Origin: an uncultured Novosphingobium sp.
GTDB taxonomy: Bacteria > Pseudomonadota > Alphaproteobacteria > Sphingomonadales > Sphingomonadaceae
Direction of reading: 5' to 3'
Length of the DNA: 64,000 nt
NCBI GenBank assembly: GCA_964413325.1
Contig: CAYPRK010000010.1
Coordinates: forward strand, 47,595-111,594
Positions 5,964 through 51,690 of this stretch are shown one piece after another (the first letter of the stretch is position 1; each line of letters starts with the position of its first letter). The position numbers were made by a program, and so were the translations under genes. The notes under the pieces are model-generated. The model saw only the letters and a program-made list of their open reading frames with translations, was not told where the DNA came from and ran no database searches.

Positions 5964-5969
5964 CTGCGC

Positions 5970-7178
5970 TCAATAGCTGTAGGCGTTGATCGAACTGCGC
6001 TTGAAGATCGCGGTAACCGAATTGAGCAGCTGGGCCAGCTTGCCGATCTGCACCGAGTCCGATGTCGAGACGTAGACAAGGTCCTGATCGCGCATCTGGA
6101 ACGACTGCGCGAGCATCATGCCCTCGGCCGACTTGAAGTTGACGTGGTAGACCACCGGCACGGTATCACCCAGCGTCAGGTAATCCGGCAGCGCGGTCGT
6201 GCGCAGCTTCTTCGCTATGTCGGCCTGCTCGTAGCGCAGCACATAGACGCCTGCCGGATCGGCCTGCTTGTCGATGAGACCGCCGCCGTTGCCGATCGCC
6301 TCGGCCAGCGTCAGGCGGGCCTTGCCGAAGTAGACTTCGCTCTGCTTGTTGGTCGCACCGAGCACGACGACGCTCTGCGGTTCGTGATCGAGCGTGACGA
6401 GATCACCCGGGCGCAGGAAGATGTTCTGCGTGGGATCGCGCAGCACCGCCGACATGCGCAGCGAACGGACCTGACCGCCGCGGGTGAGCTGCACCAGCAT
6501 CTCGCGCGCCTTGCCTGTCGTGCCGCCCGCCGTGGCAACGGCGTCGAGCAGCCGAGTGCCGCTGAGCGCCAGCGGGAAGCGACCGGGCTTGGACACGTCG
6601 CCAGTGACGGTGACGGCGTTGTCGACGGTCTGGACGACCTGGACCAGCGCCTGCGTCTCGTTCGCCTTGCCGCGCAAGGCCTTGATGATATCAGCCTGGA
6701 CCTGACGCGGCGTGCGCCCGGCAGCTTTGACCTCGCCCACAAAGGGGACGATGATCGTGCCGGACTGATCGACCGTCTGGTTCGGCACGGTGGCCGATTG
6801 CGCACCGCTCAGACCGACCGGGGCCTGACCATTGGGGTACTGGTTCACGGGTCCGAGCAGGCCGCTGCCAAACTCCCAGAGCGTGACCGAAACGGTATCG
6901 CCGATGTGAATCGTGCCCTGCGGGACCACTTCTGGAGTGGTCAGCGGCGAAAGATCGTCACCGACCTTGCCGACGAGCGCGGTCAGCACGAGGCGGTCAA
7001 CCGGGACCATCATGAACGGCGCGTTGTCAGCCGATTCCCGGTCGATCGCCTGCAGCGAAGGGCCTTGCGCGGGCATCGCCGCGCAGCCGCCGAGGGCCAG
7101 TGCCAGGCTGGCGACGGCGGCGGCCCTGAGCAATGGGCCGCGCAGCGGTGAGGTGCGGTGGGCGGACGGTTCAATCAT
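5970..7178 (-). CDS. Polysaccharide export outer-membrane lipoprotein (Wza/KpsD/BexD/CtrA family)
   Basis: Lipobox 'LALGGC'; Poly_export motif 'VDQSGTIIVPFVGEVKAAGRTP'; SLBB repeats ('VTVTGDVSKPGRFPL', 'LTLAEAIGNGGG'); 'FQMRDQDLVYVS'. Start set at MIEPS (GTG at 7184 is an alternative). Confidence 0.9.
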   Translation of the reverse strand: MIEPSAHRTSPLRGPLLRAAAVASLALALGGCAAMPAQGPSLQAIDRESADNAPFMMVPVDRLVLTALVGKVGDDLSPLTTPEVVPQGTIHIGDTVSVTLWEFGSGLLGPVNQYPNGQAPVGLSGAQSATVPNQTVDQSGTIIVPFVGEVKAAGRTPRQVQADIIKALRGKANETQALVQVVQTVDNAVTVTGDVSKPGRFPLALSGTRLLDAVATAGGTTGKAREMLVQLTRGGQVRSLRMSAVLRDPTQNIFLRPGDLVTLDHEPQSVVVLGATNKQSEVYFGKARLTLAEAIGNGGGLIDKQADPAGVYVLRYEQADIAKKLRTTALPDYLTLGDTVPVVYHVNFKSAEGMMLAQSFQMRDQDLVYVSTSDSVQIGKLAQLLNSVTAIFKRSSINAYSY

Positions 7179-7282
7179 GTTCACGGCGGACCTCGGAGTC
7201 TGATGGACAAGTGCGATGGGCTCCGCACGCCGGCGCATGGCCTTCGGGAAACCCGGACGAAACGATGGGCGGCGCGGCGCGG

Positions 7283-9028
7283 TCATACGCGCTGGAGCCG
7301 GTTGAGCGGACGGGGCGAGCCGTTTGCGGTCGCGGGCCGCACGGCGGGAGCCTTGCCGACACCAGCGGCCGGCTGCCGACCGGGTGTAGCAGGCGCGGGC
7401 CCAGCGGCCGGAGCCGTCTCGCGGCTCCGCCACAGCTTGAGGTTCTGCAGCCGCTCGGTCTGCGCCGGATTGCCCGGTTCGACCCGCGCGAGAATGCTCT
7501 CGGCCTCCTCGTGCCGGTCCTGCGTGCGCAGCACTTCGGCGTAATCAAGCAAGGTCCGCGGCTCATCATCGGCAAGGGTCAGCGCGACCTGAAACAGCGC
7601 TTCGGCTTCCTCGTTCAAGCCGCGCGCCGAACAGGCCAGCGCCAGCCGGCGATAGGGCTCGGGCGTGCGCACGCTGAATTCGGACCACGCGCGCGCGGCC
7701 TTGCGCGCACCCTCAAGGTCATCGGCGGCGATCAGCGCATCGAGACGCATCGACCAGTAGGTGTTCTTGACCGCCCGGCGCTGCGGCTCGCGCTCCAGCA
7801 GGAGCAGCGCCCGCTTGGCATTGCCCGCCGCCATCGCGATCCGGGCGCGCGCCAGCGTGATCTCGTCACCCGGGATCTGCCCGCGCATGAACGGCAGGGT
7901 CTTGGCGAGGAGGTCCATCCGGTTGACCTTGCCCGCCGCCGTGAACAGCGCGACTGCAAGATCAGGGTTGGCCTCGATCAGGTCGAACCGCTCACCCAGG
8001 GTGGCGATCACCGCCTGCGGGTTCTCGGCCATCGATTCCCGGATCGCCTCGACATCCAGCGTATCGGCGCCGACGTAGCCGCGCACCATGCGGCTGGTGT
8101 TGAGCTCGATCACACCCTTGGTCGGGTGAACCTGATCCGGCTCCAGCGCGTGCTGCCGTTCGGACAGCGTGACGCTCTCGTAGCTTGGGAAGTAATCGAC
8201 GAAATCGTGCGTGAGCGTGATCGCCTCGGCCACAGTGCGCAGGACCGCCTTGGAATAGGCGTTGGCGACCATCACGTCGTCTTCGCGGAAGGTGGCAGCA
8301 AGCGGAACCGGCGAAACGGTGAGGATCACGCGGACTTCGGGATGGCCATGCTCGCGGATCAGCGCCATCGTTTCGCGCATCGCGTCCCGCACTTCATCGT
8401 GGCTCAGCACATGGAGCTGGAAGCGCTCCGGAAACGCGCGGATCATCGAGCGGCGCGGCGCTGTGTTGAGGTAAATGCCGGTCTGCTTGTCAAACCAGCA
8501 TTCGGCGAGGCCGAGCGTGATGATCACCACTCGGCAATCGCGCAGCGCCTGATAGGCATTGAGGATAGCCCGCCGCCGCGCACGGACAACCTCGATCGGC
8601 GCCGGCTTCAGCGCGTGGTTGAGATGCACGTCGATGAACTTGTCATCGTATATCTCGAAGAAGGCCTGCTCTTCGGAAAAGCTGTGCTGGGGATCGAGCG
8701 CCCAGCGGATCTCGTTGAGAATGGCAGGCGCGCCATAGTTGTTGAGGATGTTGTGACCGATGCGGCCAAATTCCGGATCGGCGCGGATGATATCGCGCGT
8801 CGGGATCAGGAAACCCTGGCTTTCCAGCACCTTCTCGATGTTGCGCGCGAAGCATGAGCCGATCGTGAAGATCCGCTCGCCCGCAGAGAAGCGGAACGAG
8901 GGCCGGAAGCCGGGCCGGGCGAGCGGCTCGAGCCGGTTGCCCAGTTCGCCGCGCCCGGGCCACGACGAGGCGGAGTTGGCCTTGACGTTGACCATGGCTT
9001 CATCGCCGGAAAGAACCAGCAGCGGCAT
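7283..9028 (-). CDS. GSCFA-domain protein (SGNH-like) with C-terminal TPR-like repeats
   Basis: 'IFTIGSCFARNIE', 'IITLGLAECW', 'ILTVSPVPL', 'YFPSYE' and 'DQVHP' are present. The helical Ala/Leu-rich C-terminus has TPR-like spacing. RBS TAGGAG lies 6 nt before the ATG at 9028. Confidence 0.85.
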   Translation of the reverse strand: MPLLVLSGDEAMVNVKANSASSWPGRGELGNRLEPLARPGFRPSFRFSAGERIFTIGSCFARNIEKVLESQGFLIPTRDIIRADPEFGRIGHNILNNYGAPAILNEIRWALDPQHSFSEEQAFFEIYDDKFIDVHLNHALKPAPIEVVRARRRAILNAYQALRDCRVVIITLGLAECWFDKQTGIYLNTAPRRSMIRAFPERFQLHVLSHDEVRDAMRETMALIREHGHPEVRVILTVSPVPLAATFREDDVMVANAYSKAVLRTVAEAITLTHDFVDYFPSYESVTLSERQHALEPDQVHPTKGVIELNTSRMVRGYVGADTLDVEAIRESMAENPQAVIATLGERFDLIEANPDLAVALFTAAGKVNRMDLLAKTLPFMRGQIPGDEITLARARIAMAAGNAKRALLLLEREPQRRAVKNTYWSMRLDALIAADDLEGARKAARAWSEFSVRTPEPYRRLALACSARGLNEEAEALFQVALTLADDEPRTLLDYAEVLRTQDRHEEAESILARVEPGNPAQTERLQNLKLWRSRETAPAAGPAPATPGRQPAAGVGKAPAVRPATANGSPRPLNRLQRV

Positions 9029-9037
9029 TCTGTTCTC

Positions 9038-10138
9038 CTACAACTTTTCGCCGGGCCGGCGTGCCGGACCCGTGCCGACCGGCTGGCCGTACACCAGCAG
9101 GGCAGTCTTGCGATTGACCGGGCTGTCGCAGGCTCCGCCCTGCACGGCCCGGTTGCGCCACAGCATGGCACCAGCGAGCCCGTCACGGCGGATCGCCTCA
9201 TGCACGAAGCGCGCATCGGCTTCGCTCGTCTCGGCCAGATCGAACAGGGCCAGCACGCGCCGCCCATCGATCGCGCCGCCTTCGCGCAACATTGCCATCT
9301 GGCGGGCATAGCTCTCGGGCAGACTGCCTTGCGCATTGCGCGCCCACAGCCAGATCGTGGTGTAATCGAACTGCGTGACCAGTTGGCGGGCGACCGGGCC
9401 GGTGATCCCGGTCCAGGTCTGGCTCGGCGCATCAAGCGGGTTGATCATCACGCCGGCCTTGCGGCCAGCGCCGTGGACCAGCGCGGCAAAGCGCAGCAGG
9501 AAATCGAGCGACTGCTCGGGCGTGCGCCCGTCACCCACTTCGTAGTCGAGGAACACGCCGGTTGCATTGGCCTGCAGGCGCTTGGCGGCGAGCACGCAAG
9601 TATCGTCCGCGCTCACGGGTCCGTTGTCCGGCTGGACCTGCTCGGCGACGAGCCTGATCCCGGCCTTGCGCGCCAGTGCCTCGCCTTTCGCATCAGCGCC
9701 GAGCAGCCGGGCAGTCTGCGCCAGCGTGCAGGCGTTGGCGCGCTCCACTGTGGTGAACGGCGAGCGCTGGCGGCGCAGCGCGCCCGACGCGGGCTGGAAA
9801 TTCGGCTTGCGCGGCAGCTGCCGGCCCGCGCGGTTGTAAAGCGGCGCGGTCGAGCGGTTGCCCCACTGGAAGTACCACAGACCGACCCCGCGCTGCGCGG
9901 ATGCGAGCTTGCCGAGTTGCATCGTGGCGGCGTCGGTCAGCGGATAATGACTGTAGCCTGCCTCGCCCATCTGCGGTGGCGGGGCTTGCTGGAAGACGCG
10001 GAACGGCGGGCGCGCAGGACGGCTTGCGGCAAAGCACGAGGCCCCGTCGCGGCTGCGAGCCGCAGCAGCGTGCTCGCCGCCCACCAGCGCCGCAAGCGCC
10101 GCGCAGGCGCTCCAGTAGCAGGCGCCCCGCAGGTTCAC
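9038..10138 (-). CDS. Secreted protein with GH18-like (beta/alpha)8 glycoside-hydrolase motifs (putative)
   Basis: Signal-peptide-like N-terminus. 'GVFLDYE' resembles GH18 DxDxE and 'GLAGAMLW' resembles the GH18 C-terminal GLGGxMxW strand. GTGA overlap with the upstream ABC gene. Confidence 0.5.
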   Translation of the reverse strand: MNLRGACYWSACAALAALVGGEHAAAARSRDGASCFAASRPARPPFRVFQQAPPPQMGEAGYSHYPLTDAATMQLGKLASAQRGVGLWYFQWGNRSTAPLYNRAGRQLPRKPNFQPASGALRRQRSPFTTVERANACTLAQTARLLGADAKGEALARKAGIRLVAEQVQPDNGPVSADDTCVLAAKRLQANATGVFLDYEVGDGRTPEQSLDFLLRFAALVHGAGRKAGVMINPLDAPSQTWTGITGPVARQLVTQFDYTTIWLWARNAQGSLPESYARQMAMLREGGAIDGRRVLALFDLAETSEADARFVHEAIRRDGLAGAMLWRNRAVQGGACDSPVNRKTALLVYGQPVGTGPARRPGEKL

Positions 10139-10875
10139 GCCGAAGTCGTGCCTTCCGCAAGCACCGCGTCCTGCGCAGCCGGTTGAACCGTTTCGCCTTC
10201 GGTCTGTGCGGCAGACACTGCAGCGGCCACCGGCGGCAGCGAGCTATCAAACGCGGCGAGCGCATCGGCGATGGTATCGTAGAACCGGGCGCCGCCCTTT
10301 GTCAGCACGATGCCGCAATCGCAGAGCTGCTCGGCCATGCGCGGCTGGCGCGTGGCGATGATCGTTCCGGCCTCGGCCGCACGCGCGGCATAGAGCCGGG
10401 TGCACAGCTCGCGCACTTCAGGCTGCGGCGGGCCGATCACGTTGTCGAACAGATAGCAATCGAAGGGCAGGGTATAAGTGAGCAGGTAGCTGAACGCGAT
10501 GCGCGTCTGGACCGAAAGCTCGCGCAATGGAAACTCGAGCTCGTCCTGCAACATGCAGACGTCGCTCAGGAATTCCACCACCTCATCCGGATCGGCGCCA
10601 TAGATGCGCGCGGCAAACATCGCGTTCTGGCGCATGGTGCTGGTCTGGCGGAAGCCGCGCTGGAAGCCGCCGGGGAACGACAGGCGTGCCCCGCGCTCGA
10701 TGCGGCCGCCCTGCGGCGTTTCGATGCCGGCGAGCAGGTTGAGCAGCGTGGTCTTGCCGCTGCCCGTGCCGCCGAGAATGGCGACGCGCCGGTCCGTCGG
10801 GATGACGAGGTCCAGCTCCGAAAAGATCGGCCGGCCCTTGGCGTAGGCGTGGCTCAGTCCGTCGACGCGGATCAT
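10135..10875 (-). CDS. kpsT: KpsT/BexA-like capsule ABC transporter nucleotide-binding subunit with degenerate catalytic motifs
   Basis: Collinear with KpsT (Walker A GGTGSGKTT, 'SFPGGF', 'ARIYG', 'FDCYLFD', 'LCDCGIVL', 'FYDTIADA'). Signature, Walker B Glu, D-loop and H-loop are altered. RBS AAGGAA precedes the ATG at 10875. Confidence 0.8.
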   Translation of the reverse strand: MIRVDGLSHAYAKGRPIFSELDLVIPTDRRVAILGGTGSGKTTLLNLLAGIETPQGGRIERGARLSFPGGFQRGFRQTSTMRQNAMFAARIYGADPDEVVEFLSDVCMLQDELEFPLRELSVQTRIAFSYLLTYTLPFDCYLFDNVIGPPQPEVRELCTRLYAARAAEAGTIIATRQPRMAEQLCDCGIVLTKGGARFYDTIADALAAFDSSLPPVAAAVSAAQTEGETVQPAAQDAVLAEGTTSA

Positions 10876-10879
10876 CGTA

Positions 10880-11737
10880 TCATTCCTTCTCTTCAAGATA
10901 ACGGCGCGTTCCCGCCTCGAACAGCAAACCGAGCGTGAACAGCACCAGCGCGACCATCAGCACGTAGAACTGGTCGGTCAGCGCCTGGGGGTAGAACGGG
11001 TAGAACGCCCGCCGGAACCAGTTCACCCCGTGCATCACCGGGTTGAGCCCGAAGAAGTAGCGGCTTGACGGCGTGAGGTAGGCAGCGACGAAATAAGGCC
11101 CGGAAAAGTGCAGCGAAGCGCGCGCGATGGCGGGCCACACCACGTCCCACACCGGCACGACGCGCGCGAGGACGGCGTTGAAGATGCCGGTCGCGAGGCC
11201 AAGCAGGAACAGCGTCGCCAACGCTTCAACGGCGGTCAGCGGATCGTAGGGGATCGCCGCTTCCACGCCGCCGAACCAGTAAAGGCCGAGGAAGAACAGC
11301 GCAGCGACGGCAGCGCTGCTGACGATGTGGATGACGGCGTGCACCATAAGGTGATCAAGCGGCCGTTCGATCGGAAACCGGTTGCGGTGCGCCAGCACGT
11401 TGAGCGGCTGCCGGATGCGCAGCGAGGTGTGGATGAACAGGTAGATCGGGAACACGCCGGTGCCGAGGAAAAGCAGCAGGCTGTGCCCGTAAGGCGGGGT
11501 GCGGCTGAGCGCGGAGAACAGCACCCCGATGGTCGCGACGATGACCAGCGGCTCCACGCCCGCCGCGATGTAGCCCAGCGCAAAGCTCTGCCCGTGGCGC
11601 GTCTCCGCCTCACGGTAGAGCAGCGCGGAAAAGACATTGTACTGGCTGCTGAGCGCCCGGCGCACCCCTTCCCAGGGCGAAGGTCCGCCCTGGGAAGCAG
11701 GCCTTCCTGCCATCGCGCCCGACGGAGGCGTCGTCAC
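10880..11737 (-). CDS. kpsM: KpsM/BexB capsule ABC transporter permease
   Basis: 'ALLYREAETRHG...LGYIAAGVEP', six hydrophobic segments, 'FGLNPVMHGVNWFRRAFYP'; lies between kpsE-like and kpsT-like genes. Confidence 0.85.
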   Translation of the reverse strand: MTTPPSGAMAGRPASQGGPSPWEGVRRALSSQYNVFSALLYREAETRHGQSFALGYIAAGVEPLVIVATIGVLFSALSRTPPYGHSLLLFLGTGVFPIYLFIHTSLRIRQPLNVLAHRNRFPIERPLDHLMVHAVIHIVSSAAVAALFFLGLYWFGGVEAAIPYDPLTAVEALATLFLLGLATGIFNAVLARVVPVWDVVWPAIARASLHFSGPYFVAAYLTPSSRYFFGLNPVMHGVNWFRRAFYPFYPQALTDQFYVLMVALVLFTLGLLFEAGTRRYLEEKE

Positions 11738-13170
11738 CGACCGTGCTCCATGACCGAATTGCTGACGAGCAGACCGATCAGCCAGATCATCCCGGCAATC
11801 ACCGCCAGCAGCATCAGTTCGGACAGACGGTCCGGACCGCTCGGGCTCTCGCCCACGCGCGGCTTGACATAAGTCGTCAGGTAAACCCGCTGCGCATCTG
11901 ACATCGCCTGCGAATTGCTGAGCGCGGCCTGCGCATTGGACAGCACGCTGAGCGAGGCCTGCAATTGCGCTGTCAGATCGGCGTAGCGGTTCGACTTCTC
12001 GGAATTGACGACATCGACCGAAGACGCCAGCGCGCGCTCGTTCGCGGCAAGCTGTTCGCGCAGCAGGCGGATCTGCGGCGCGTTGGGATTGTTGAGCTGC
12101 GCCATCAGCACCTGGATCTGCGCCTGAATCTGCGCGATGTTGGTGCGGGTGTTGGTCGAAAGATCACCATTCGCCTTGAAGACACCGAGCGATGGGGAAT
12201 CGATGCCCTTGTGCGAAGACGAAAGCGAGGCGATTTCGCGGCGCAGATCGGTCACCTGCTGGCTGGCGCGGCGCACCTGCTGCTCGGCAAAGCGGACGGT
12301 ATCCTGCTGCGATTGTTGCCCGATCTGGTTGACCAGATCGTTCGACTGCTGGAGCAGGGTGTTGGCGATCGCGTAGCTGTCCTGCGCGGTGTAGGCCTTC
12401 ACGCGGACCACGGCGAGACCGGTGGTCACGTCGTAATCCGAGAAGATCATGTTCTTCCAGTAGCGCGCGAGGCGCTCGGCGGAAGCACCATCGCCGACGC
12501 GCGAGAACGGATCGCCCGGCTTGTTATACATCGCCTTGAGGTTGACCTTCTTGTCGAGGTCAACGGCGGCCTGCTGGCTGCGCACGTAATCGGCAACGGT
12601 GAAGTTATCGAGCAAGTCGGTGCCCGGTGTCGGATTGCCGCCAAACAGCGCCGACAGCGAAGCGCCGCCCGAGGCGATCGACCCCGGCTGGCCTACCGGC
12701 ACGCGCACGCTGAAGCGGAACTCGGTGGTGTAGATGTCCGGCGCGAGCAGGAGGAGGTAGAACGCGCCAAGCACGACGGGAGCGACGAACGAGACGCCGA
12801 ACCAGATCCGCCGGCCCAGCGAGCGACGCGTGCGGCGGCGCGGCAGGGCCAGACCCGCGTTCGAGCCGCCATCCTGTGCGGGCAGCGCACCGGTCGATGC
12901 GGCAGTGCGCGTGAAGAACAGGCCCTTGCCGGAATCGTCCTGCGTGCCTGGTGTCACAGTAGCGGGATCGGCCTGCACGGCTTCCTCGCTCCAGAATTCG
13001 CGCGCCGAGCGCAGCGGTGGCGGGGCTTCGCCTCCGCGCGCCGCGCTGCGCGTGCGCGGCAGGCGAGCGGAGATTTCGCCGCGCGTCGCACCCGCTTCAC
13101 TATCAACCGCAGGCCCCGCCCCCGGCGTGCCTTCGCGTTCACCAACCATTGTCTCGGATTCCCCCAGCAT
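11734..13170 (-). CDS. kpsE: KpsE/BexC/CtrB polysaccharide co-polymerase of ABC-dependent capsule export
   Basis: N-terminal TM followed by 'APDIYTTEFRFSVR', 'VADYVRS', a coiled-coil region, 'QRVYLTTYVKP' and a C-terminal TM. About 100 aa of extra low-complexity N-terminus; start uncertain (13149, 13170 or 13209). Confidence 0.85.
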   Translation of the reverse strand: MLGESETMVGEREGTPGAGPAVDSEAGATRGEISARLPRTRSAARGGEAPPPLRSAREFWSEEAVQADPATVTPGTQDDSGKGLFFTRTAASTGALPAQDGGSNAGLALPRRRTRRSLGRRIWFGVSFVAPVVLGAFYLLLLAPDIYTTEFRFSVRVPVGQPGSIASGGASLSALFGGNPTPGTDLLDNFTVADYVRSQQAAVDLDKKVNLKAMYNKPGDPFSRVGDGASAERLARYWKNMIFSDYDVTTGLAVVRVKAYTAQDSYAIANTLLQQSNDLVNQIGQQSQQDTVRFAEQQVRRASQQVTDLRREIASLSSSHKGIDSPSLGVFKANGDLSTNTRTNIAQIQAQIQVLMAQLNNPNAPQIRLLREQLAANERALASSVDVVNSEKSNRYADLTAQLQASLSVLSNAQAALSNSQAMSDAQRVYLTTYVKPRVGESPSGPDRLSELMLLAVIAGMIWLIGLLVSNSVMEHGR

Positions 13171-13198
13171 AACTGTATCGCGCCCCCTTGCAGACGGC

Positions 13199-14449
13199 CT
13201 ACATGGCAATCGGCAGCGGCACTTCGTCCTTGCCGTTCAGCAGAAAGAGGTTGGGCGCCGGGCGCGGCTCGGGCCGCTCTGGCCGCTCGGTCGACCAATG
13301 CGACAGGCACGGGATCTTGCTCCGGTCACACCGGCCAGCGAATCGGCGGGCGATTTCGGAAACTTCCGCGGCCAGTCCTTCCCGCAGAAACGTCGGCTTG
13401 AGGCCAAGCTTCAGGAACGAATCGTTGCACACGTTGAGCTCGTTTTCGCTCGCTTCCACGCGCGGATTGGGCACGTGCTGGTAATCGACGCCGGTCATGT
13501 CAGCGATCATCCGCGCCAGATCGATCAGACGGTGCGTCTCGGTCATCTGATTCATGATCGCCACGCGCTCGCCCTTTGCGGGCGGATTGGCGATCGCGAG
13601 TTCGATGCAGCGCACGCTGTCGCGGATGTGGATGAAGGCACGGGTCTGCCCGCCGGTGCCGTGCACGGTCAGCGGGTAGTCGATCGCCGCCTGCATCAGG
13701 AAGCGATTGAGCACCGTGCCGTAGTCGCCGTCATAATCGAAACGGTTGATCAGGCGCGGATCGGCCGAAGTCTCGGCGGTCTGCGTGCCCCACACGATGC
13801 CCTGATGCAGATCGGTGATGCGGGTCTGGTAGTTGCGGTTGTAGTACCAGAAGAACAGCGCGTCCTGCGCCTTGGTCATGTGGTACACGCTGCCCGGGTG
13901 TGCCGGATAGAGCACTTCGATCTGCTGCTCGCCCGCGGGCGTATCGACGCGGACCGGAAGGTAGCCTTCGGGAATGGTCATCCCCGCCGTGCCATAACCA
14001 TAGACGCCCATCGTGCCGAGGTGGACGAGATGGATATCGAGACCGCTTTCGACGATCGCCGAGAGCACGTCATGAGTGCCGTTGAGATTGTTGCGCACGG
14101 TGTACCGGCGCTCGGCCGAACCCTTCATCGAGTACGGCGCGGCCCGCTGTTCGGCGAAGTGCACGATGGCCTTGGGGCGCTCGCGGCGGATCAGATCGAC
14201 GAGGGCATCGTAATCCTGCCCGATCGTCATCTTCTCGAAGCGGATCGTCCGACCACTGACTTCGCGCCACGCTTCGATCCGGACCTCGATCGGCCGGATG
14301 GGGGTCAGCGAATCAGCGCCCAGATCGACATCGATCTTACGGCGCGACAGATTGTCGACGATGACGACGTTATAGCCGATGTGCGAAAGGTGCAGCGCCG
14401 TCGGCCAGCCGCAAAACCCGTCGCCGCCCAGAATGATGACTGTTTCCAT
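13199..14449 (-). CDS. sqdB: UDP-sulfoquinovose synthase
   Basis: 'ILGGDGFCGWPTALHLS', 'HFAEQRAAPYSMK', 'HLVHLGTMGVYGY', 'PGSVYHMTK', 'TDLHQGIVWG', 'NRFDYDGDYGTVLNRF', 'GTGGQTRAFIHIRD' and 'NPRVEASEN' are characteristic SqdB/SQD1 sequences. Confidence 0.95.
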   Translation of the reverse strand: METVIILGGDGFCGWPTALHLSHIGYNVVIVDNLSRRKIDVDLGADSLTPIRPIEVRIEAWREVSGRTIRFEKMTIGQDYDALVDLIRRERPKAIVHFAEQRAAPYSMKGSAERRYTVRNNLNGTHDVLSAIVESGLDIHLVHLGTMGVYGYGTAGMTIPEGYLPVRVDTPAGEQQIEVLYPAHPGSVYHMTKAQDALFFWYYNRNYQTRITDLHQGIVWGTQTAETSADPRLINRFDYDGDYGTVLNRFLMQAAIDYPLTVHGTGGQTRAFIHIRDSVRCIELAIANPPAKGERVAIMNQMTETHRLIDLARMIADMTGVDYQHVPNPRVEASENELNVCNDSFLKLGLKPTFLREGLAAEVSEIARRFAGRCDRSKIPCLSHWSTERPERPEPRPAPNLFLLNGKDEVPLPIAM

Positions 14450-14506
14450 GATGCCACCCGATGCAGGAGGACGTGGCAGCCCCCCGCAGGGGCGCCACGC
14501 GGAAGA

Positions 14507-14857: not shown

Positions 14858-14937
14858 TTGAAACAACCCCTTATATACAAACGCACACAATCGGACCGAC
14901 AACCTCTAAAAAGGCGTCGGAGCAAATCACCTCGCAA

Positions 14938-14961: not shown

Positions 14962-15091
14962 AATATTTCGTATTCAAGCCCGTGCGAATTTCATTTCCAT
15001 CAGATTCGATCTTGAAGTTAACCTATTTTGTTCAATAGGATAAACGCCTGTCGATGTCTGATCCTTCGCCCCTCCCGAAATCCATAATGAT

Positions 15092-16069: not shown

Positions 16070-16080
16070 CGATTGCCCCA

Positions 16081-44784: not shown

Positions 44785-45227
44785 ACAGAACACTTCCTGA
44801 GCACACTCGCGCGGCCAACCGCAGCCCCAATGGGTTCACGCTGCTCGAACTGCTGGTCGTGCTGGCAATCCTCGGCCTGCTCGCCGCGATCGTCGGCCCG
44901 CAGGTAGTGCGCTACCTCGGCAGCTCGCGCAGCGAAGCAGCGCATGTGCAGGCGCGCAATATAGCCGCTTCCTTGCAGCTCTACCGGCTCGACATGGGCG
45001 GCTTCCCCACTGCCGAGGAAGGCCTCAAGGCACTTGTCACCGCGCCTGCCGGGCATCCCGAATGGAACGGGCCCTACCTCGCCGAGAGCTCGGCCCTGAC
45101 CGATCCATGGGGCCGCCCCTATCAGTTCAAGGTGCCGGGCGAACACGGCGAAGTCGATGTTTTCTCGCTCGGCTCAGATGGCGCAGTCGGCGGAACCGGC
45201 GAGGCGAAAGATGTCGGCAACTGGTGA
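44781..45227 (+). CDS. gspG: Major pseudopilin GspG
   Basis: G|FTLLELLVVLAI N-methylation motif, 'YRLDMGGFPT', 'WNGPYL', 'DPWGRPY', 'SLGSDG'. Confidence 0.95.
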   Translation: MNRTLPEHTRAANRSPNGFTLLELLVVLAILGLLAAIVGPQVVRYLGSSRSEAAHVQARNIAASLQLYRLDMGGFPTAEEGLKALVTAPAGHPEWNGPYLAESSALTDPWGRPYQFKVPGEHGEVDVFSLGSDGAVGGTGEAKDVGNW

Positions 45228-45627
45228 TCCCGCACCGCGCCATGCCGATGCCGGTTTCACGCTGTTCGAGCTTCTGGTCGCGGTCGCGATCATGAGCCTC
45301 GTTGCCGGCATTGCCTTTCCCGCGCTCCAGCAGGTCAACGCGCGGCGCACGCTGGACCATGCCCAGCGCGCTCTTGCCGTCGCCATCGTGACTGCGCGGG
45401 CCGAGGCGCTGACGCGTGGCCGTGTCGTCGCACTCGCCCCCGCAGCCGCAGCGCCGGACACACTGCTGGCGAACGGGCAGATCGTGGCAAAGCTCCCTTC
45501 CGGTGCCAGCGTGACCTGGCCGGCCGAGCGCCCGGTGTTCTATCCGGACGGTTCCGCACGCGGCGGGATGCTCTCGGTCACGGCGGACGGTGCCGTCCGG
45601 CAAGTCAATCCGGTTGCCCTCCCATGA
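45211..45627 (+). CDS. gspH: Minor pseudopilin GspH
   Basis: 'AG|FTLFELLVAVAI'; 'VFYPDGSARGG'. Confidence 0.85.
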   Translation: MSATGDPAPRHADAGFTLFELLVAVAIMSLVAGIAFPALQQVNARRTLDHAQRALAVAIVTARAEALTRGRVVALAPAAAAPDTLLANGQIVAKLPSGASVTWPAERPVFYPDGSARGGMLSVTADGAVRQVNPVALP

Positions 45628-45998
45628 GGGAAAGATCCGCACTGCCCGCACCCGAAGAGGCGGGATTTTCGCTGATCGAAGCCCTCGTTGCGCTGGCCGT
45701 GATCGCGGTTTCCGTCAGCGCCTTCCTCGCGGCGCTGGGACAGGATGCAAAGCTCGAAGGCGCGGCAAGCCGCCGCTCGCTTGCCGTTATGGTCGCCCGT
45801 TCCGCGCTGGACCGCGCGATGGGCGGCGATAACACTCCGTCAGGCCGCGATCAGGGTCTCGGCTGGCAGGTCTCGCGCCAGCCGCATGGCCTCACAGATC
45901 CGCTCGACCGGGTGCGGCTGGAGGATGTCGTCGTCACCGTTTCGAGCGACGGCATCACGCCCATCGTCACTCTGAAAAGCATCAGGGTGCGCCAGTGA
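45624..45998 (+). CDS. gspI: Minor pseudopilin GspI
   Basis: 'AG|[14 protein letters not shown]'; position in operon. Confidence 0.85.
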   Translation: MRERSALPAPEEAGFSLIEALVALAVIAVSVSAFLAALGQDAKLEGAASRRSLAVMVARSALDRAMGGDNTPSGRDQGLGWQVSRQPHGLTDPLDRVRLEDVVVTVSSDGITPIVTLKSIRVRQ

Positions 45999-46678
45999 CA
46001 GCCATCAAACGGGACAGCCGCGAGCGCGGGTTCTCGCTTGTCGAGATGCTGGTGGCGCTCGCCGTGACCGGCTTTGCCGCGCTGCTGCTGGCAACCGCGG
46101 TCGGCCGCATCGAAGGCGTGGTGCACAAGGGGCGGACTTCCTCGCAGGCGCTCGCGACCGTCTCGGCCGCGCAGCTTGGCCTGCGCGAGCGACTGGAGCG
46201 GGCCTTGCCCGAGCCTGATCCGCAGAACCCCAGTTCCGCCGTGGACTTTCGCGGCCAGTCCGCCGTGATGGACTGGGTCGGCACGCCGATCGACGCCGCT
46301 GCACCCGATGCGCTGTGGCGCTATCGTCTGGCGCGCACCGCCGATGGCCGGATTGCACTCTATCACCGCAGCAGCCTTTCCACTCTCGGCGATGAGCGCG
46401 GTCCCAGTCTGATCGGCTGGAGCGCTACCCCGCTGCTCGATGGCACCGCCGCTCTCGAGCTTTCCTATTTCGGCACGATTTCCGGCCCCGGCTCGCCGCG
46501 CGCGTGGCAGCAGAGCTGGGCTGCGCGCCGTGCCCTGCCCCTGCTGGTGCGCGTGCTCGTCCGCTTCCCTGAAGGCGACCGGCGGCGCTGGGCCGAACTC
46601 GTGGTGCGGCCGCGCGCCGTCTTGCCCGAAGATTGCCCGCCGCAGGGCGGCAGCGAACCCTGTGGAGATCCAGCATGA
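45995..46678 (+). CDS. gspJ: Minor pseudopilin GspJ
   Basis: 'RG|FSLVEMLVALAV'; 'W...ALPLLVRV'. Confidence 0.85.
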   Translation: MTAIKRDSRERGFSLVEMLVALAVTGFAALLLATAVGRIEGVVHKGRTSSQALATVSAAQLGLRERLERALPEPDPQNPSSAVDFRGQSAVMDWVGTPIDAAAPDALWRYRLARTADGRIALYHRSSLSTLGDERGPSLIGWSATPLLDGTAALELSYFGTISGPGSPRAWQQSWAARRALPLLVRVLVRFPEGDRRRWAELVVRPRAVLPEDCPPQGGSEPCGDPA

Positions 46679-47712
46679 GCGCCAACCTGAGCAGGCGCGG
46701 CATTCTCGATGCCGATATGCGCACCGTGGGCGGATGGATCGCCGATGGCACGCGCTGGTGGATCGGCGAACTGGGCGCGCTGGTTCCGCCAGCCATCGCC
46801 CATGCCCTGCGACCTGCGGCGACCAGCGTCGATTGGGCGCCGCAAAGAGCCGCCTTCTCGCCCGAACCGGCGCGCGGCAAGCCTTGGACGGTGCGCCTGC
46901 CAGCGAACATCGCGCTGGTCCGGCAGGTCGAGTTACCCGCTGTCGCGCCCCGCGCGCTTGGCACCATGGTAAGGCTTGAGGCCGACCGGCTGATGCCGTT
47001 CCCGCCCGGCGGACCGGTGGTGATCGCCGCGCTCCCGCAATCATCGGGCGCGCCGGGTGGCCGACAGCCCACCACCATCGCCGGGCTTGCCCCGGACGCC
47101 GCACGCGCGCTGGCTGATGCGATTGCGGCGGAACCGGCGCCCCCGCGCGCTGTGCTGGCACCGCTTCCCGGCGGCGGCGAGATCGATCTGCTGCCCGCCA
47201 TGGCCCGCGCCGGTCTGGTTCCCGATGAAGCAGGCCGCGCGCGGATCTGGTGGATGATCGTCGCCGCGCTGTTCGCACTCAACCTCGCGCTCATCACCTG
47301 GCGCGACATGGCGGCGGTCGACCGGCTGAACGATGCGATAGAGGCGCAGCAGCCCGCGCTCGCCGTCGCGCGCCGCATTTCTGGCCGCATCCGCGCCGAC
47401 AGTGCCCTGGCCGGTGCCGTCGCCGCAGAGCGCGAGAAGGCGGAGCCGTTGGCGCTGATGGCGCGGGTCGCCGCAGCGCTGCCGTCGGGTGTTTGGCTGC
47501 AGCGCTGGGGCTGGCAGGATGGCACGCTGCACCTTGCCGGCATGCGCCCGCCCGCGAGCGATGTCGCGGGCGCGCTGCGCAGGGCTGGCTTTGCCACCGT
47601 CCGCTATGCCGACAGCGCGGGCGACAGCAGCGCCGAGGCCGCCGCAACGCCGCTCGGCGTGCCCTTCGACGTCGTGCTGCAAGCGCCCGGCGCGGAAAAG
47701 GCCAGGCCATGA
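46675..47712 (+). CDS. gspL: Type II secretion protein GspL (PilN-like periplasmic domain)
   Basis: 'WWIGELGALVP' N-terminus, one TM, 'LPSGVWLQRW'; ATGA overlap with gspJ. Confidence 0.75.
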   Translation: MSANLSRRGILDADMRTVGGWIADGTRWWIGELGALVPPAIAHALRPAATSVDWAPQRAAFSPEPARGKPWTVRLPANIALVRQVELPAVAPRALGTMVRLEADRLMPFPPGGPVVIAALPQSSGAPGGRQPTTIAGLAPDAARALADAIAAEPAPPRAVLAPLPGGGEIDLLPAMARAGLVPDEAGRARIWWMIVAALFALNLALITWRDMAAVDRLNDAIEAQQPALAVARRISGRIRADSALAGAVAAEREKAEPLALMARVAAALPSGVWLQRWGWQDGTLHLAGMRPPASDVAGALRRAGFATVRYADSAGDSSAEAAATPLGVPFDVVLQAPGAEKARP

Positions 47713-48266
47713 ACGGACGCACACTCTCCCCGCGCGAGGCCCGCCTTGTGGCAATCCTCGTCCTTGTCGCGCTGATCGGACTTGTCTGGCTCCTGGTGCT
47801 GGGGCCTGTCCTCGGCGGTTTTGCCGAACGCAGCACCCAGCGGGACGAGTTGACCACGCGCCTTGCCGCCAACGACCGGATGATCGCCAGCGTGCCGCGC
47901 CTGCGCCGCGTCGCCGAAGCGCGTGAACGCGCGCTCGGCTCGGTGATCCAGATCGCGCCCGATGCAGCGTCTGCGAACGGCGCGCTGCGCGATCGCCTGC
48001 AGGCCGCGCTCGTGGCCACGGGCGGTTCCTTTCGCGGCGCTGAAGACTTGCCCGCCACCCGCACCCGCGTTTCCTGCCGCCTGCGCGCGCGGCTCTCGCC
48101 CGAACAACTGAACCGGTTCCTCGTGCTCATTCAGAACACGCGGCCGGCGCTCGTCGTCACCTCGCTCGTGGTCGGAGGCGAGGATGCCCTCGTCACTGGC
48201 CGCGCCTCAGATCTGGATGTCCAGCTTGAAGCCTCCGTTCCCGTTCGCCTGGCCGCGTCGCGGTAG
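47709..48266 (+). CDS. gspM: Type II secretion protein GspM
   Basis: 'LSPREARLVAIL', single TM, 'FLVLIQNTRPALVVTSL'. This is the real 3' part of listed ORF 47250..48266. Confidence 0.8.
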   Translation: MNGRTLSPREARLVAILVLVALIGLVWLLVLGPVLGGFAERSTQRDELTTRLAANDRMIASVPRLRRVAEARERALGSVIQIAPDAASANGALRDRLQAALVATGGSFRGAEDLPATRTRVSCRLRARLSPEQLNRFLVLIQNTRPALVVTSLVVGGEDALVTGRASDLDVQLEASVPVRLAASR

Positions 48267-48741
48267 TCCGGCGCGCCTGCCGGCCTTGCTCGTCCCGCTG
48301 CTGGGCGTGCTGGCGGCTGTGCAGCTGGCGTTGCCGCAAGGCGATGCGCCGGTCTCGAGCCCGGCCGTGGCGCAGCTCGCCTTGCCGCCTTTGCCGCAGC
48401 CCCCTGCGCAAGTTTCGCTGCCGCCCGTGCTGGCGCGGCGAGCGTTGTTCGCTTCCGGCTCGGCTGCAGACGCGGCAGGCGGCGCACCGTCCGCCCTGGC
48501 CGATCCGCTGGGCGGCATCCGCATCGCCGGGACGGTGCGCGAAGGCCGCGCCCTGCGCGCCGTAGTCCAGTGGCCGAACGGCCGCATTTCCTACGCCGGC
48601 ATCGGCAGCCACCTTGGCGACTGGTCGATCACCGCGCTGACCCCGTCGGCGGCGCGGCTCTCCGGGCCAGCCGGTTCCTTGAGCGTCACGTACGGCAGCC
48701 AGCCCCAGCCCCTTTCCATCGTTTCGGAAGACCAGCAATGA
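48184..48741 (+). CDS. Small GspC/GspN-like T2SS accessory protein
   Basis: Hydrophobic N-terminus, 'RRALF', 'RIAGTV', 'GDWSITAL' (HR-domain-like); lies between gspM and gspD. Start uncertain (TTG at 48286 is possible). Confidence 0.55.
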   Translation: MPSSLAAPQIWMSSLKPPFPFAWPRRGSPARLPALLVPLLGVLAAVQLALPQGDAPVSSPAVAQLALPPLPQPPAQVSLPPVLARRALFASGSAADAAGGAPSALADPLGGIRIAGTVREGRALRAVVQWPNGRISYAGIGSHLGDWSITALTPSAARLSGPAGSLSVTYGSQPQPLSIVSEDQQ

Positions 48742-50830
48742 CCAGCCTCCCATCGCAACTCGCCACCATCCTCGCTGTGCCGGTCGTTGTCGCTCCGGTG
48801 GTGGCGATGTCACAGGGCGAGCATATGGCGCAGCCACTGCCGGTCCCCGCGTTCGGCTTCGCTCCCGCCGCGACACCGCACATGGCCGAGCCGGCGATAC
48901 CGCAAACGCCCGCCGTCGCGCTCGAACCCGGCCGGCAGGTCAGCACAACCATCCTTGCTGGCGATACGGCGGCACCGGTCGCAGCGCGCCCCGCCGCGAA
49001 GCCGCCAGCGCACGGCTCGATTTCGCTCAATCTGCCTTCTGCGGATGTCTCCGTCGTCGCCCGTGCCGTGCTCGGCGATCTGCTGCGCCGCAACTACACG
49101 ATTGCCGAAGGCGTGACGGGCACCGTCTCGTTCGTCACGCCCTATCCGGTGGCGCGCCACGCGCTGCTGCCGATGCTGGAAGATGCCCTGCGCGCGGCCA
49201 ATCTCGCGCTCGTACCCGTGGCGGGGGGCTATGAAATCCAGCCTGTTGCCGGTGCCAGCGGAGTCGTCGGGGCCGATGTTGCCGGGTTCGGCAGCGAAGC
49301 GATCACCGTGCGCTTCATCAATACCGAGGAAGTGCGCAAGGTGCTCGATACCCTGCTGCCGGGCGTTGTTTCCTCCACCAATCCCACCACCGGCACGGTC
49401 ACGATCACCGGCACCAGCGGCCAGCGCAGCAGCGCGCGCGATCTCCTCAAGCAGTTCGATGTCGATTGGCTGCGCAACACCAGCTTCGCGCTCTATGTCC
49501 CGCACCGCACTGACGCGCGGCTGATCGTCCCGTCGCTCGACAAGCTGATCAACGCATCGGATTCGCCCACGCACGGCCTTGTCCGCCTGATCGCGATGGA
49601 TCAGGTCAACGGCATCCTCGCCATCAGCATGCAGCCGCAATACCTTACCGACGTCCAGCGCTGGGTCGAAATCCTCGACCGCGAAGGCGAAAGCGCCGAG
49701 CCGCGCATCTTCGTCTACCGCGTGCAGAACGGCCGCGCCCGCGATCTGACCCGCACAATCAACATGGCATTCGGCGGCGGCGGCGGCAATGGCAGCTCGG
49801 ATGGTTCCTACGGCACCGGCGGCGATCAGCCTGGTGCCTTCCCCGGCGCGCTTCCACCACCGCCTCCCGCCGCCGAACCGCGCGGTAACCTTGCGCCCGC
49901 GCCGCAATCCGCGAACGGCGCCGCAGCCAACGCTGCGCAGGTCACCCGCGTCACCGCCGACGAAGTGAACAACGCGGTTCTCGTCTATGCCACCCCGCGC
50001 CAGTACGCCGTGGTGGAGGACGCGCTGCGCAAGCTCGATCTGCCGCCGACGCAGGTCCTGATCGAAGCCGCAATTACCGAAGTCGGCCTCAACGATGATC
50101 TCGGCTTCGGCGTGCAGTGGAACTTCAACAGCAACGGCAACAGCCTCGGGGTCGGCACCGCAAGCACCGCGCCCGGCGGCGCGACCACGTTCACTTATGC
50201 CTATACCGGCAGCAATATCGCCGCATCGCTCAAGGCACTCGAACAGCGCACCAGCGTCAAGGTCGTCTCCGCGCCCAAGCTGCTGGTGCTCAACAACCAG
50301 ACCGCCGCGCTGCAGGTGGGCGATCAGGTGCCGATCTCGACCGGCACCGCCACCAATCTCACCAACAGCAATTCGGTCGTCAGCACGATCGAGTATCGCG
50401 ACACCGGCGTCATCCTCAAGATCACCCCGCGCGTGAATGCCAGCGGGGTGATCCAGCTCGATGTCAGCCAGGAAGTCAGCGACATCAGCAACGCCGCGCC
50501 CTCCGCGCAGACCCAGCAGCAATCGCCGACCATCTCGACTCGCCGCATTGCGACGACTGTTGCTGTGGCCGACAACCAGGTCATCGGCTCGGCGGCCTGT
50601 TCCGCGACAATACGCAGAACCTGCGCAACGGCATCCCGATCTTTTCACGCATTCCGGTGCTCGGCGGCCTGTTCGGCAACCAGCAGAAAGTACAGAAGCG
50701 AACCGAGCTGATCGTCCTTCTGAAGCCGCACGTGCTGCACGATCCGGACGAGGGCCGCGCCGCTACGGATGAACTGCGCAACAAGCTGAAGATGATGCGC
50801 CCGTTCGGTTCCGGCAATCAAATCCCGTGA
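48738..50830 (+). pseudogene. gspD: Type II secretion secretin GspD, interrupted by a 1-nt deletion at 50586-50587 (real lesion or sequencing error)
   Basis: N-domains and secretin motifs ('QVLIEAAITEV', 'KLLVLNNQTAALQVGDQVP', 'YRDTGVILKITPRVN') run to 'DNQVI'. The conserved tail 'LGGLFRD...GIPIFSRIPVLGGLFG...RTELIVLLKPHVL' continues in the -1 frame to 50830. Confidence 0.9.
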
Positions 50831-51690
50831 TGCAGGATCGCCGGCCTGAACCTGCAAGGCCGGAGCCTGATGGCTATGCCATGGTGGCGGCGGTCGTGGC
50901 CATGGCGGTGCTGTCGTTGCTGGCGCTCGAAATGATGGACTGGGCGCAGTTGGCAATCACCCGGACCGGCGGAGAACTCGCCCGCGCCCGGGCTGTCGCC
51001 GCGGCCGATGCCGGCGTCGCGCTGGCGCTGCACCGGGTTATCGATGGCGATGCGACCACCAATGCCATTTCCGATGGCCGCCCGTGGACCGAGACCTACG
51101 AAGGTGCGCGGCTTACGATGCGGCTGGTCTACGAACGCGGCAAAGTCCCGATCAACGTGATCGACGAAGCGACGGTGACCCGCCTGCTCGAGAAGCAAGG
51201 GCTGACCGGCAGCGCGCTGCTGCGGGCGCAGGACTCGCTGCTCGACTGGCTGGACGACGACGACGAGCCGCGCCCCTATGGCGCAGAAGCGCCGGACTAC
51301 GCCGCTGCGAGGATCGCCCCGCGCAACGGCTCCTTGCGCAGCGTTGCCGAACTGTCCCGCATTCGCGGGATCGGGCCTGAACTCGCCGCGCGCATGGCGC
51401 CGCTGATCACGGTTTCTCCCGAGGCGCGCTCGTTCGAGGCAGCGCATGCCGACCCGCGCGTACTGGCGATCATGCTACCTGATGGCGGCGCCGTCTCCGC
51501 GCTCATCCGTTCGCGCGAGCAGGCGGGCGCGCGCACTGCGCTGGAATTCGGCGAGACCAATTCGCTGAGCAGCGGGCCGATCACGATCCTGATCGACGCT
51601 GCCATCGACGGCGCGACTGCGCACCGCGAGGCCGAGATCGAACTGCTTGGCGGTCCCAGCAAGCGCTGGCGGATCAGATCGTGGAACTGA
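50827..51690 (+). CDS. gspK: Minor pseudopilin GspK
   Basis: 'DG|YAMVAAVV', 'ERGKVPIN', 'LLDWLDDDD', 'GAEAPDY', 'RNGSLRSVAELSRIRGI'. Confidence 0.9.
   Translation: MMQDRRPEPARPEPDGYAMVAAVVAMAVLSLLALEMMDWAQLAITRTGGELARARAVAAADAGVALALHRVIDGDATTNAISDGRPWTETYEGARLTMRLVYERGKVPINVIDEATVTRLLEKQGLTGSALLRAQDSLLDWLDDDDEPRPYGAEAPDYAAARIAPRNGSLRSVAELSRIRGIGPELAARMAPLITVSPEARSFEAAHADPRVLAIMLPDGGAVSALIRSREQAGARTALEFGETNSLSSGPITILIDAAIDGATAHREAEIELLGGPSKRWRIRSWN

Follow-up and report, generated by a model that had tools for sequence, protein, structure and literature searches.

A Type II Secretion, DING-Type, and Two-Partner Secretion Gene Cluster of Novosphingobium with Pho-Box-Like Promoters and an sqdB Capsule Module

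In Pseudomonas aeruginosa, genes PA0677-PA0696 bring together the hxc type II secretion system (T2SS), lapA and lapB, pdtA-phdA-pdtB, exbB2-exbD2-tonB4, and the putative porin gene PA0696, and the cluster is induced at low phosphate through PhoB and the extracytoplasmic function (ECF) sigma factor VreI (PMC7035377). Low-phosphate induction is documented for hxc, lapA/B, pdtA, and PA0696 (PMC7035377; proteomics, PMC9769906), and the cluster is reported to end with genes for a LysR-like and an AraC-like regulator (PMC7035377). In the alphaproteobacterium Caulobacter crescentus, a T2SS belongs to the PhoB regulon and secretes ElpS (PMC11208175). Here we describe a gene cluster in 64 kb of DNA from an uncultured Novosphingobium sp. 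(the window; contig CAYPRK010000010.1, assembly GCA_964413325.1). Its part comprising the T2SS, a DING-type protein, two-partner secretion (TPS), and a TonB system is a new variant of the P. aeruginosa-type cluster, and its newest part is a Pho-linked module for a putative sulfoquinovose capsule.

Eighteen co-oriented genes on the minus strand (5970-41349) diverge from 11 T2SS genes on the plus strand (41822-51690) across a spacer of 472 bp (41350-41821). From the spacer outward, the minus arm runs from the DING-like gene through the TPS/TonB cassette and TpsA to the sulfosugar capsule. Coordinates, strands, gene counts, and module order all agree with a preliminary description of this DNA. 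Its comparison with P. aeruginosa also holds: the match to hxc/lapA/pdtAB/exbB2D2-tonB4/PA0696 is one of content as well as order (PMC7035377). Open reading frames (ORFs) were called with guidance from third-position GC (GC3) and scanned against Pfam and NCBIfam; among the 18 genes are two small, easily overlooked ones, small117 and small170, both kept in relatives. The cluster is organized in four transcription units: the T2SS genes, the gene for the DING-type protein (PBP697), an operon from tpsB to tpsA, and an operon from small117 and sqdB to wza.

Compared by content and order, the window resembles the P. aeruginosa cluster in setting its T2SS beside a DING-family gene, a giant TpsA, and a TpsB, and in the collinearity of tpsB-exbB-exbD-tonB-porin. 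It differs in lacking vreAIR and phdA, in placing tpsA at the end of its operon rather than the start, in encoding a DING-type protein of 697 aa with large insertions, in having an sqdB capsule module attached, and in giving every unit a Pho-box-like promoter of its own, an arrangement suggestive of direct control. The absence of ECF sigma and anti-sigma genes from the window, remarked on earlier, is borne out by the scans, in which no ORF carried a Sigma70_r2/r4 or anti-sigma domain. An arrangement so far studied in P. aeruginosa as a virulence locus recurs, then, in environmental alphaproteobacteria, with Pho-box-like promoters and no ECF sigma factor, and this recurrence points to an ancient phosphate-acquisition function. 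The Caulobacter T2SS, which is alphaproteobacterial, PhoB-regulated, and serves extracellular phosphate acquisition, is a precedent for that of the window, although its cargo is a lipoprotein, ElpS, rather than a DING-type protein, and no linked TPS/TonB cassette or capsule has been reported for it.

Conservation of the Cluster and Its DING-Type Protein

In the genome scan the PBP697 family turned up in Sphingomonadales only: of 61 genome loci, 53 are sphingomonad, the remaining eight being weak, PstS-like matches in other phyla. The closest relatives of PBP697 are found on the chromosome of a Novosphingobium metagenome-assembled genome (78% identity) and in N. rhizosphaerae LY (75%). When all window proteins were compared with the family loci by tblastn, 30 loci proved to have the divergent T2SS/PBP pair. 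The full order, T2SS / PBP-tpsB-exbB-exbD-tonB-porin-small170-tpsA, is retained by about 10 loci of the Novosphingobium type, whose PBP identity falls as low as 38% (L001-L004 and L006-L011; we added L041, which ends before tpsA). A giant TpsA-like gene ending in DUF3739 adjoins the PBP gene in nearly all sphingomonad loci (in nearly every one of L013-L053, by its 3' end); it lies upstream on the same strand or convergent to the DING-like gene, with or without a T2SS. Adjacency this constant suggests that TpsA and the DING-type protein cooperate at the cell surface. Tandem DING-like paralogues occur in several loci (L023, L035). Non-pathogenic, cultured carriers such as N. rhizosphaerae LY offer models for the TPS/ExbBD-TonB/porin cassette, whose function is uncharacterized even in P. 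aeruginosa (PMC7035377).

Judged by its sequence and predicted structure, PBP697 is an expanded DING-type phosphate-binding protein and not a canonical 40-kDa DING, a classification we adopt because the family profile, the structural matches, and the DING-type motifs agree. The family profile matches solved DING structures at E values of 5e-19 to 4e-16 and the best PstS at only 1.5e-6. With an AlphaFold (AF2) model of PBP697 (pLDDT 85, pTM 0.87) as the query, the top Foldseek matches are DING proteins (E ~1e-14; TM 0.71-0.74 on the DING chain), and the motifs GTGSG, FSD, and RLDNSGTTD.F.RHL are kept across the family, the latter two aligning to the DING structure. PBP697 has its PstS-like, two-lobed Venus-flytrap fold in common with PfluDING and HPBP (PDB 2q9t, 4f1v, 2v3q), which give the best profile and structure matches. 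Those proteins are about 40 kDa and begin with DINGGG, whereas PBP697 is almost twice that size, carries some 300 extra residues as insertions relative to canonical DING, and lacks DINGGG at its mature N-terminus, where the equivalent region reads IHGAGATS. Of the gene identities given earlier, all of which hold, "DING" is therefore the loose one, apt for the fold and not for the size or the N-terminus. The PBP697-like family also has four invariant and two nearly invariant cysteines.

The locus had further been called an island, and in the sense of a chromosomal gene cluster the word can stand; it is not a mobile island. Horizontal acquisition was considered and rejected: the GC content of the cluster is about that of its flanks, its borders have neither an integrase nor a tRNA, and the cluster is chromosomal in complete genomes.

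Pho-Box-Like Promoter Elements

The preliminary description inferred possibly direct control by PhoB, and in silico support for this comes from Pho-box-like repeats at four promoters, those of the T2SS, PBP697, the tpsB operon, and the sqdB/capsule-export operon. The repeats were found by phylogenetic footprinting of orthologous intergenic regions after a strict consensus had failed. All four consist of TGTCAY-type half-sites in direct repeat with an 11-bp period, upstream of the start codon and in the orientation of the gene.

The best-conserved element belongs to PBP697. Across loci it reads ATCACA-N4-TGTCAT, 10 nt, TA, and lies about 250-330 nt before the PBP start; it is found upstream of the homologue in 43 sphingomonad loci, those without a T2SS included, and columns C28, T29, and A30 of its alignment are invariant. 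Scored with a position weight matrix (PWM) derived from 22 other loci, the site at 41603-41634 (-) of the window reaches 35.6 bits, and 20 shuffles give at most 14.9. Ahead of tpsB, the block cTGTCACAcagaTTAaACAC is kept in 12 orthologous and otherwise diverged intergenic regions, preceded by a terminator, and the pattern derived from it finds 39120-39136 as its sole match in the window. The hairpin and T-run that end the PBP gene have an equivalent in 12 of 12 orthologous loci. The T2SS repeat is kept in the five closest loci (the window and L001-L004), and L010 has a near-canonical TGTCAC-N5-TGTCGC. Upstream of small117-sqdB, seven loci aligned over 100 nt have a single conserved block, TGT(C/A)GC-N5-TGT(C/A)A(C/T); it departs from TGTCAY-N5-TGTCAY at no more than one position in L063, L064, L067, L068, and L069 and at two in the window. 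Matches with at most one mismatch are scarce, only 24 in 1.25 Mb of loci, and about two-thirds of them stand at these promoter classes. Others lie ahead of DsbA-like genes adjacent to PBP paralogues, of the gene for a giant Calx-beta protein, and of a canonical pstS; the last is in the deltaproteobacterial locus L055, with the site 249 nt upstream.

A strict spacing between Pho box and core promoter has been described for PhoB (PMC10294691). The PBP and capsule promoters have a conserved TA exactly 10 nt past the second half-site, and this spacing sets the repeat at the -35 position, the PhoB geometry; ahead of tpsB and of the T2SS operon, the core element that should follow the repeat is less distinct. 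In the clade of the window, TGTAA replaces TGTCA at several promoters together (41617-41632, 39120-39136, and 41754-41770; L001, L003, and L062). This looks like a concerted shift of the recognition sequence, and a shift at several sites at once suggests that one factor reads them all.

We lean toward the view that a single regulator, most likely PhoB~P, would turn on all four units when phosphate is depleted. Several results weigh against it. A search for the strict E. coli box (CTGTCAT-N4-CTGTCAT, at most three mismatches) gave one intragenic match in the window against 2.7 expected and none in the spacer, and several half-sites are degenerate (ATCACA, TTACAC, TGTCTA). No sphingomonad pstS/phoU/phoB control was found in the studied loci with E. 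coli sequences and the L055 PstS as queries. The related sqdB locus of Reyranella has no such box, and in the window the GT4-epimerase pair has none of its own and would need read-through from tpsA; in L063, where GT4 is not preceded by tpsA, it has its own one-mismatch box.

Half-sites that depart from TGTCA at several positions, together with the missing sphingomonad Pho-regulon control, would fit a different reader of the repeats, whether another member of the OmpR/PhoB family or some other regulator, with envelope stress, sulfur, iron, or surface contact as the signal. The cassette contains a TonB system, and these are often iron-regulated. In L039, moreover, an atypical OmpR/PhoB-like response regulator (5964-6723) is encoded beside a DING-like PBP paralogue; it has Ser in place of the phospho-accepting Asp (LSW, not LDW), and the promoter motif lies directly upstream of its gene. 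We nevertheless consider another regulator unlikely. Pho boxes are characterized by just this 11-bp period, by TGTCA(C/T) half-sites, and by a geometry that replaces the -35 element; the best-conserved target encodes a phosphate-binding protein, the canonical pstS of L055 bears the same kind of site, and dependence on PhoB is common to the homologous cluster of P. aeruginosa and the T2SS of Caulobacter. The four promoter elements amount to a directly testable regulon model.

Some further sites and leader features deserve mention. A second copy of the PBP-type element, CCATCACATTTCCGTCAT, overlaps the PBP697 stop codon at 39239-39270 (+) with 14 of 16 core bases; with the PWM it scores 14.7, no better than the best shuffle, and it may be a chance match, an antisense site, or a secondary binding site. 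The sequence CCGACACAAATGTGCAAC upstream of GT4, kept in the window and L062, was not counted as a Pho box, matching only 6 of 12 core positions, and a Fur box at the capsule promoter was rejected, since the AT-rich, palindrome-like stretch there is specific to the window and not conserved. DsbA-like thioredoxin-fold genes (CPYC) beside DING-like paralogues in L028 (-2944) and L032 (-6055) have a one-mismatch site just upstream. At the start of the PBP697 leader, about 41560-41600 (-) and just past a -10-like element, are a hairpin with compensatory changes (CCNG...CNGG) and a G5 run. Conservation in this leader of about 270 nt is limited to the 5' hairpin and G-run and the Shine-Dalgarno region; a riboswitch is unlikely, the remaining ~200 nt being unconserved. 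The capsule operon leader is likewise long, about 230-310 nt. An Rfam scan of the window returned a tRNA-Tyr and no known leader RNA, and generic sigma-70 promoter and terminator scans gave matches at chance level.

The sqdB Module and a Possible Sulfoquinovose Capsule

Whether the capsule module travels with the rest of the cluster, a check called for by the preliminary description, was addressed with the GT4 gene as anchor, by comparing its genomic contexts in seven genomes, that of the window included. The answer is largely affirmative. In five of the seven (the window, N. rhizosphaerae LY [L062], L067, L068, and L069) the module lies directly downstream of tpsA, and the adjacency persists, with small insertions, down to 45-60% protein identity; L067, L068, and L069 are the more distant, with GT4 identities of 60-64%. 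In a sixth genome (L011/L064) the module has moved a few kilobases beyond the T2SS, beside a second TPS pair. In L064 (1-9548) it diverges from genes for ShlB and a YDG/MBG_2 repeat protein of 2,539 aa, after which comes a Sulfotransfer_3 gene, and a Pho-box-like site lies ahead of this second tpsB. In L068 (8073-8876) and L069 (9141-9953), a Peptidase_A24 gene for a GspO-like prepilin peptidase sits between tpsA and the module.

These comparisons bear on the simplest alternative, that the modules are mere neighbors and the capsule an independent polysaccharide locus after tpsA that answers to unrelated signals. GT4 homologues occur in capsule loci of Novosphingobium, Caulobacter, Reyranella, and Nevskia, and similar modules in the last three lack DING, T2SS, and TPS genes; a gap of 256 bp separates tpsA from GT4 in the window; and in L063 the module is not adjacent to tpsA, which also counts against the linked reading that we prefer. 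Chance neighborhood is nonetheless quite improbable in our estimation, given five genomes with adjacency at such divergence, a T2SS prepilin peptidase inserted in two of them, a relocated L064 module still within a few kilobases of the T2SS and next to another TPS pair, and an export operon whose promoter element is of the class seen at the other units.

By its sequence, the sqdB product of the window is a true SQD1/SqdB homologue. Phmmer aligns it with Arabidopsis SQD1 (PDB 1qrr) at E 1.4e-92 across residues 1-385, and it keeps the catalytic Thr (GTMG) and the Tyr-His-x-x-Lys motif (YHMTK versus YHLSK). It falls below the cut-off of the NCBIfam UDP-sulfoquinovose synthase family NF041015 (334 versus 575 bits), which is still by far its best family match. 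As in ABC-transporter-dependent capsules of the group 2/Vi type (KpsMTED/VexABCD), KpsM, KpsT, KpsE, and an outer-membrane polysaccharide export (OPX) protein are encoded in one operon, and the NCBIfam matches of the KpsT/KpsM pair include VexC and VexB. Unlike those systems, the window has SqdB and conserved proteins of 116 and 366 aa, and it lacks the poly-Kdo linker enzymes KpsC/KpsS (Capsule_synth, PF05159), an absence that counts against the proposed reading; L065, a Caulobacter relative, does have the domain. The only glycosyltransferase of the module is the GT4 enzyme, a candidate sulfoquinovosyl or polymerizing transferase.

In the scheme we propose, PhoB~P would activate all four units at low phosphate. 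The T2SS would export the DING-type protein, probably as Hxc does LapA, and secreted PBP697 would capture or scavenge phosphate on the cell surface or close to it. TpsB would secrete the giant filamentous TpsA. Driven by the proton motive force, ExbB(LamG)-ExbD-TonB would energize an outer-membrane step at Porin_5. The sqdB operon would act together with the GT4 and epimerase genes, a pair probably expressed in the window through tpsA read-through: SqdB is predicted to make UDP-sulfoquinovose, which the GT4 enzyme would build into a polymer, and KpsMTE and Wza would then export a sulfonated, phosphorus-free anionic coat. Put together, these steps would make a PhoB-switched surface program in which a DING-type trap works with a TpsA filament, a Ton-like motor with a lectin-like periplasmic domain and Porin_5, and the first sulfoquinovose capsule of a bacterium. 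We put this complete program forward tentatively, as possible but well short of likely. The earlier suggestions of phosphorus sparing and of a remodeling of the entire surface are speculation.

A competing account keeps the phosphate-sparing logic and changes the product: the module would make a sulfoquinovosyl glycolipid, SQDG-like or a sphingolipid, for KpsMTED-like export to the outer membrane. The sulfoquinovosyltransferases known so far, SQD2 and SqdX, are members of CAZy family GT4, as is the module's single glycosyltransferase, encoded 1.6 kb from sqdB, and the linker enzymes KpsC/KpsS are missing. The account takes as its premise that the organism has glycosphingolipids in place of lipopolysaccharide, and in Caulobacter PhoB induces glycosphingolipid synthesis (PMC11208175). 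A complete KpsM/T/E and OPX set is, however, a hallmark of ABC-transporter-dependent polysaccharide export; the modules of relatives carry extra GT2/GT4 genes, which suggests a polymer; and beside sqdB there is no sqdD, sqdC, or sqdA. We therefore find the glycolipid doubtful and retain the polymer as the favored product.

Current discussion of sulfoquinovose treats it as the head group of a lipid and as a sugar of archaeal N-glycans. A 2026 review of bacterial sulfoquinovose cycling nowhere mentions polysaccharides, and the literature we searched held no counterpart of an sqdB-containing KpsMTED module with a Pho-box-like promoter. If our proposal is true, a KpsMTED-exported sulfoquinovose polymer would extend the known biological sources of sulfoquinovose and represent a new kind of phosphate-sparing surface polymer. 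The tua operon of Bacillus subtilis, under PhoP, offers an analogy and nothing closer: on phosphate starvation the cell switches from teichoic to teichuronic acid, a phosphorus-free anionic polymer. The proposed logic is the same, but the genes are unrelated, the polymer is one of the Gram-positive wall, and its charge is carboxylate, not sulfonate.

Component Genes and Flanks

Table 1. Genes and regulatory elements of the cluster, by position in the window
Feature	Position	Strand	Basis or remark
Outer-membrane polysaccharide export protein (Wza/KpsD/VexA-like)	5970-7178	-	Poly_export, SLBB, SLBB_2; NCBIfam polysaccharide export / VexA
GSCFA-family (SGNH-like) protein with C-terminal TPR	7283-9028	-	Pfam GSCFA 1e-43, TPR
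unk366, conserved 366-aa protein	9038-10138	-	next after KpsT in the six Novosphingobium-type capsule loci covering the position
KpsT	10135-10896	-	ABC_tran; NCBIfam Vex matches
KpsM	10880-11737	-	ABC2_membrane; NCBIfam KpsM NF050053 5e-18; Vex match
KpsE/CtrB/BexC-family inner-membrane polysaccharide co-polymerase	11734-13209	-	TIGR01010 1.3e-46
UDP-sulfoquinovose synthase homologue (SqdB/SQD1)	13199-14449	-	phmmer versus SQD1
small117, conserved 116-aa protein	14507-14857	-	first gene of sqdB/export operon
sqdB/capsule-export operon promoter	15084-15113	-	TGTAGC-N5-TGTCAC, 10 nt, TAT; overlaps last epimerase codons
NAD-dependent sugar-nucleotide epimerase/dehydratase (GalE/RmlB-like)	15092-16084	-	Pfam Epimerase 1.7e-56; TIGR01179 galE 1e-48, below cut-off
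GT4-family glycosyltransferase	16081-18474	-	Glycos_transf_1, Glyco_trans_4_4
TpsA, giant (~4,411 aa) TPS exoprotein	18731-31966	-	TPS domain PF05860 7.9e-16; DUF3739 1.7e-26
small170, secreted coiled-coil protein	31980-32504	-	ATG overlaps Porin_5 stop codon
Porin_5-family outer-membrane protein	32504-34408	-	PF16930 2.6e-141
TonB-like	34408-35112	-	TonB_2
ExbD	35126-35533	-	Pfam ExbD
ExbB fused to periplasmic DUF2341 and LamG	35571-37400	-	MotA_ExbB, Laminin_G_3, DUF2341; TolQ/ExbB PDB matches
TpsB (Omp85-type transporter for TpsA)	37402-39072	-	ShlB 1.5e-17, POTRA_2 1.1e-8
tpsB operon promoter repeat	39120-39136	-	TGTAAC-N5-TTACAC; 48 nt upstream of tpsB ATG
Intrinsic terminator 3' of PBP697 gene	39188-39218	-	11-bp GC stem, GCAA loop, T5; read directly
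PBP697, expanded DING-type phosphate-binding protein	39256-41349	-	PBP_like_2; 697 aa; monocistronic
PBP697 promoter element	41603-41634	-	ATCACA-N4-TGTAAT, 10 nt, TAT; ~270 nt upstream of ATG
T2SS promoter repeat	41754-41770	+	TGTAAC-N5-TGTCTA; 51 nt upstream of gspE ATG
T2SS operon	41822-51690	+	T2SSE, T2SSF, N_methyl, GspH, T2SSM, Secretin with N0 domain, T2SSK domains
GspE	41822-43570	+	
GspF	43567-44784	+	
GspG	44781-45227	+	assigned by eye
GspH	~45211-45627	+	
GspI	45624-45998	+	
GspJ	45995-46678	+	
GspL-like	~46675-47712	+	weak assignment, by position and size only
GspM	47709-48266	+	
Unassigned 185-aa protein	48184-48741	+	
Secretin GspD	~48738-50711	+	
GspK	50827-51690	+	

The T2SS operon (Table 1) supplies a core of E, F, G, the minor pseudopilins H-K, an L-like protein, M, and the secretin D; neither a recognizable GspC nor the prepilin peptidase GspO was found in the 64-kb window. 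The 4-nt overlaps of start and stop codons in this operon depend on internal starts proposed from the translations, not on annotated starts. In the capsule module, the ORF of the Wza-like protein extends to 7433; its likely start is MIEPS at 7178, followed by the lipobox LALALGGC, and orthologues in L062-L069 have 380-412 aa. The GSCFA-TPR protein is probably concerned with polymer modification; its position varies in L063, L068, and L069, and in some relatives a methyltransferase takes its place. Neither unk366 nor small117 has a Pfam, NCBIfam, or PDB match, and both are conserved, the former at 46-71% identity in L062, L063, L064, L067, and L068 (tblastn) and the latter in seven of seven capsule loci at 50-81%, with 35% in a Reyranella locus.

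TpsA has a visible signal peptide, an N-terminal TPS domain, and a C-terminal DUF3739. The small170 protein, likewise without a Pfam, NCBIfam, or PDB match, is kept at 50-82% identity in L001-L011 (tblastn). In the ExbB-like protein, DUF2341 and LamG form an N-terminal periplasmic extension, and the third transmembrane segment (TM3) reads IAPGIAAALLAT in the family, with Ala across the aligned sequences at the position where Glu is expected. In E. coli, ExbB and TolQ have an essential Glu there (ISEAL / IAEAL). The replacement points to a divergent stator, and an "ExbB3" of strain SYK-6 is reported to be without the same Glu (PMC8599685).

The fusion of DUF2341, LamG, and ExbB is widespread: 1,235 cluster representatives match it at E<1e-30. 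We anchored 46 metagenome contigs longer than 8 kb on the fused ExbB; most have ExbD and Porin_5 alongside, and many also hold TpsA, TpsB, or both. Contigs with the cassette, (TpsA/TpsB)-ExbB(DUF2341-LamG)-ExbD-(TonB)-Porin_5, among L070-L149 span GC contents of 0.37-0.72 and hence many lineages, and T2SS or DING-like neighbors are rare beside them (two contigs). A Wza-like gene lies a few kilobases downstream of the cassette in four (L089, L120, L139, L142).

The flanks of the cluster encode an amino-acid permease, a cell-wall hydrolase, an AraC/DJ-1 regulator, short-chain dehydrogenases/reductases (SDRs), Lon, and MlaA. The AraC-family regulator, with a DJ-1/PfpI domain (53269-54210, -), lies 1.6 kb past the T2SS. 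Just outside the other end is a 1,364-aa protein, probably a surface protein, with SdrD_B/CarboxypepD_reg-like and pentapeptide repeats (444-4538, +). A low-GC patch (0.59) at 56000-58000 contains the tRNA-Tyr (57745-57830), a 409-aa ORF without a Pfam match (56044-57273), and several weak, AT-rich PWM matches.

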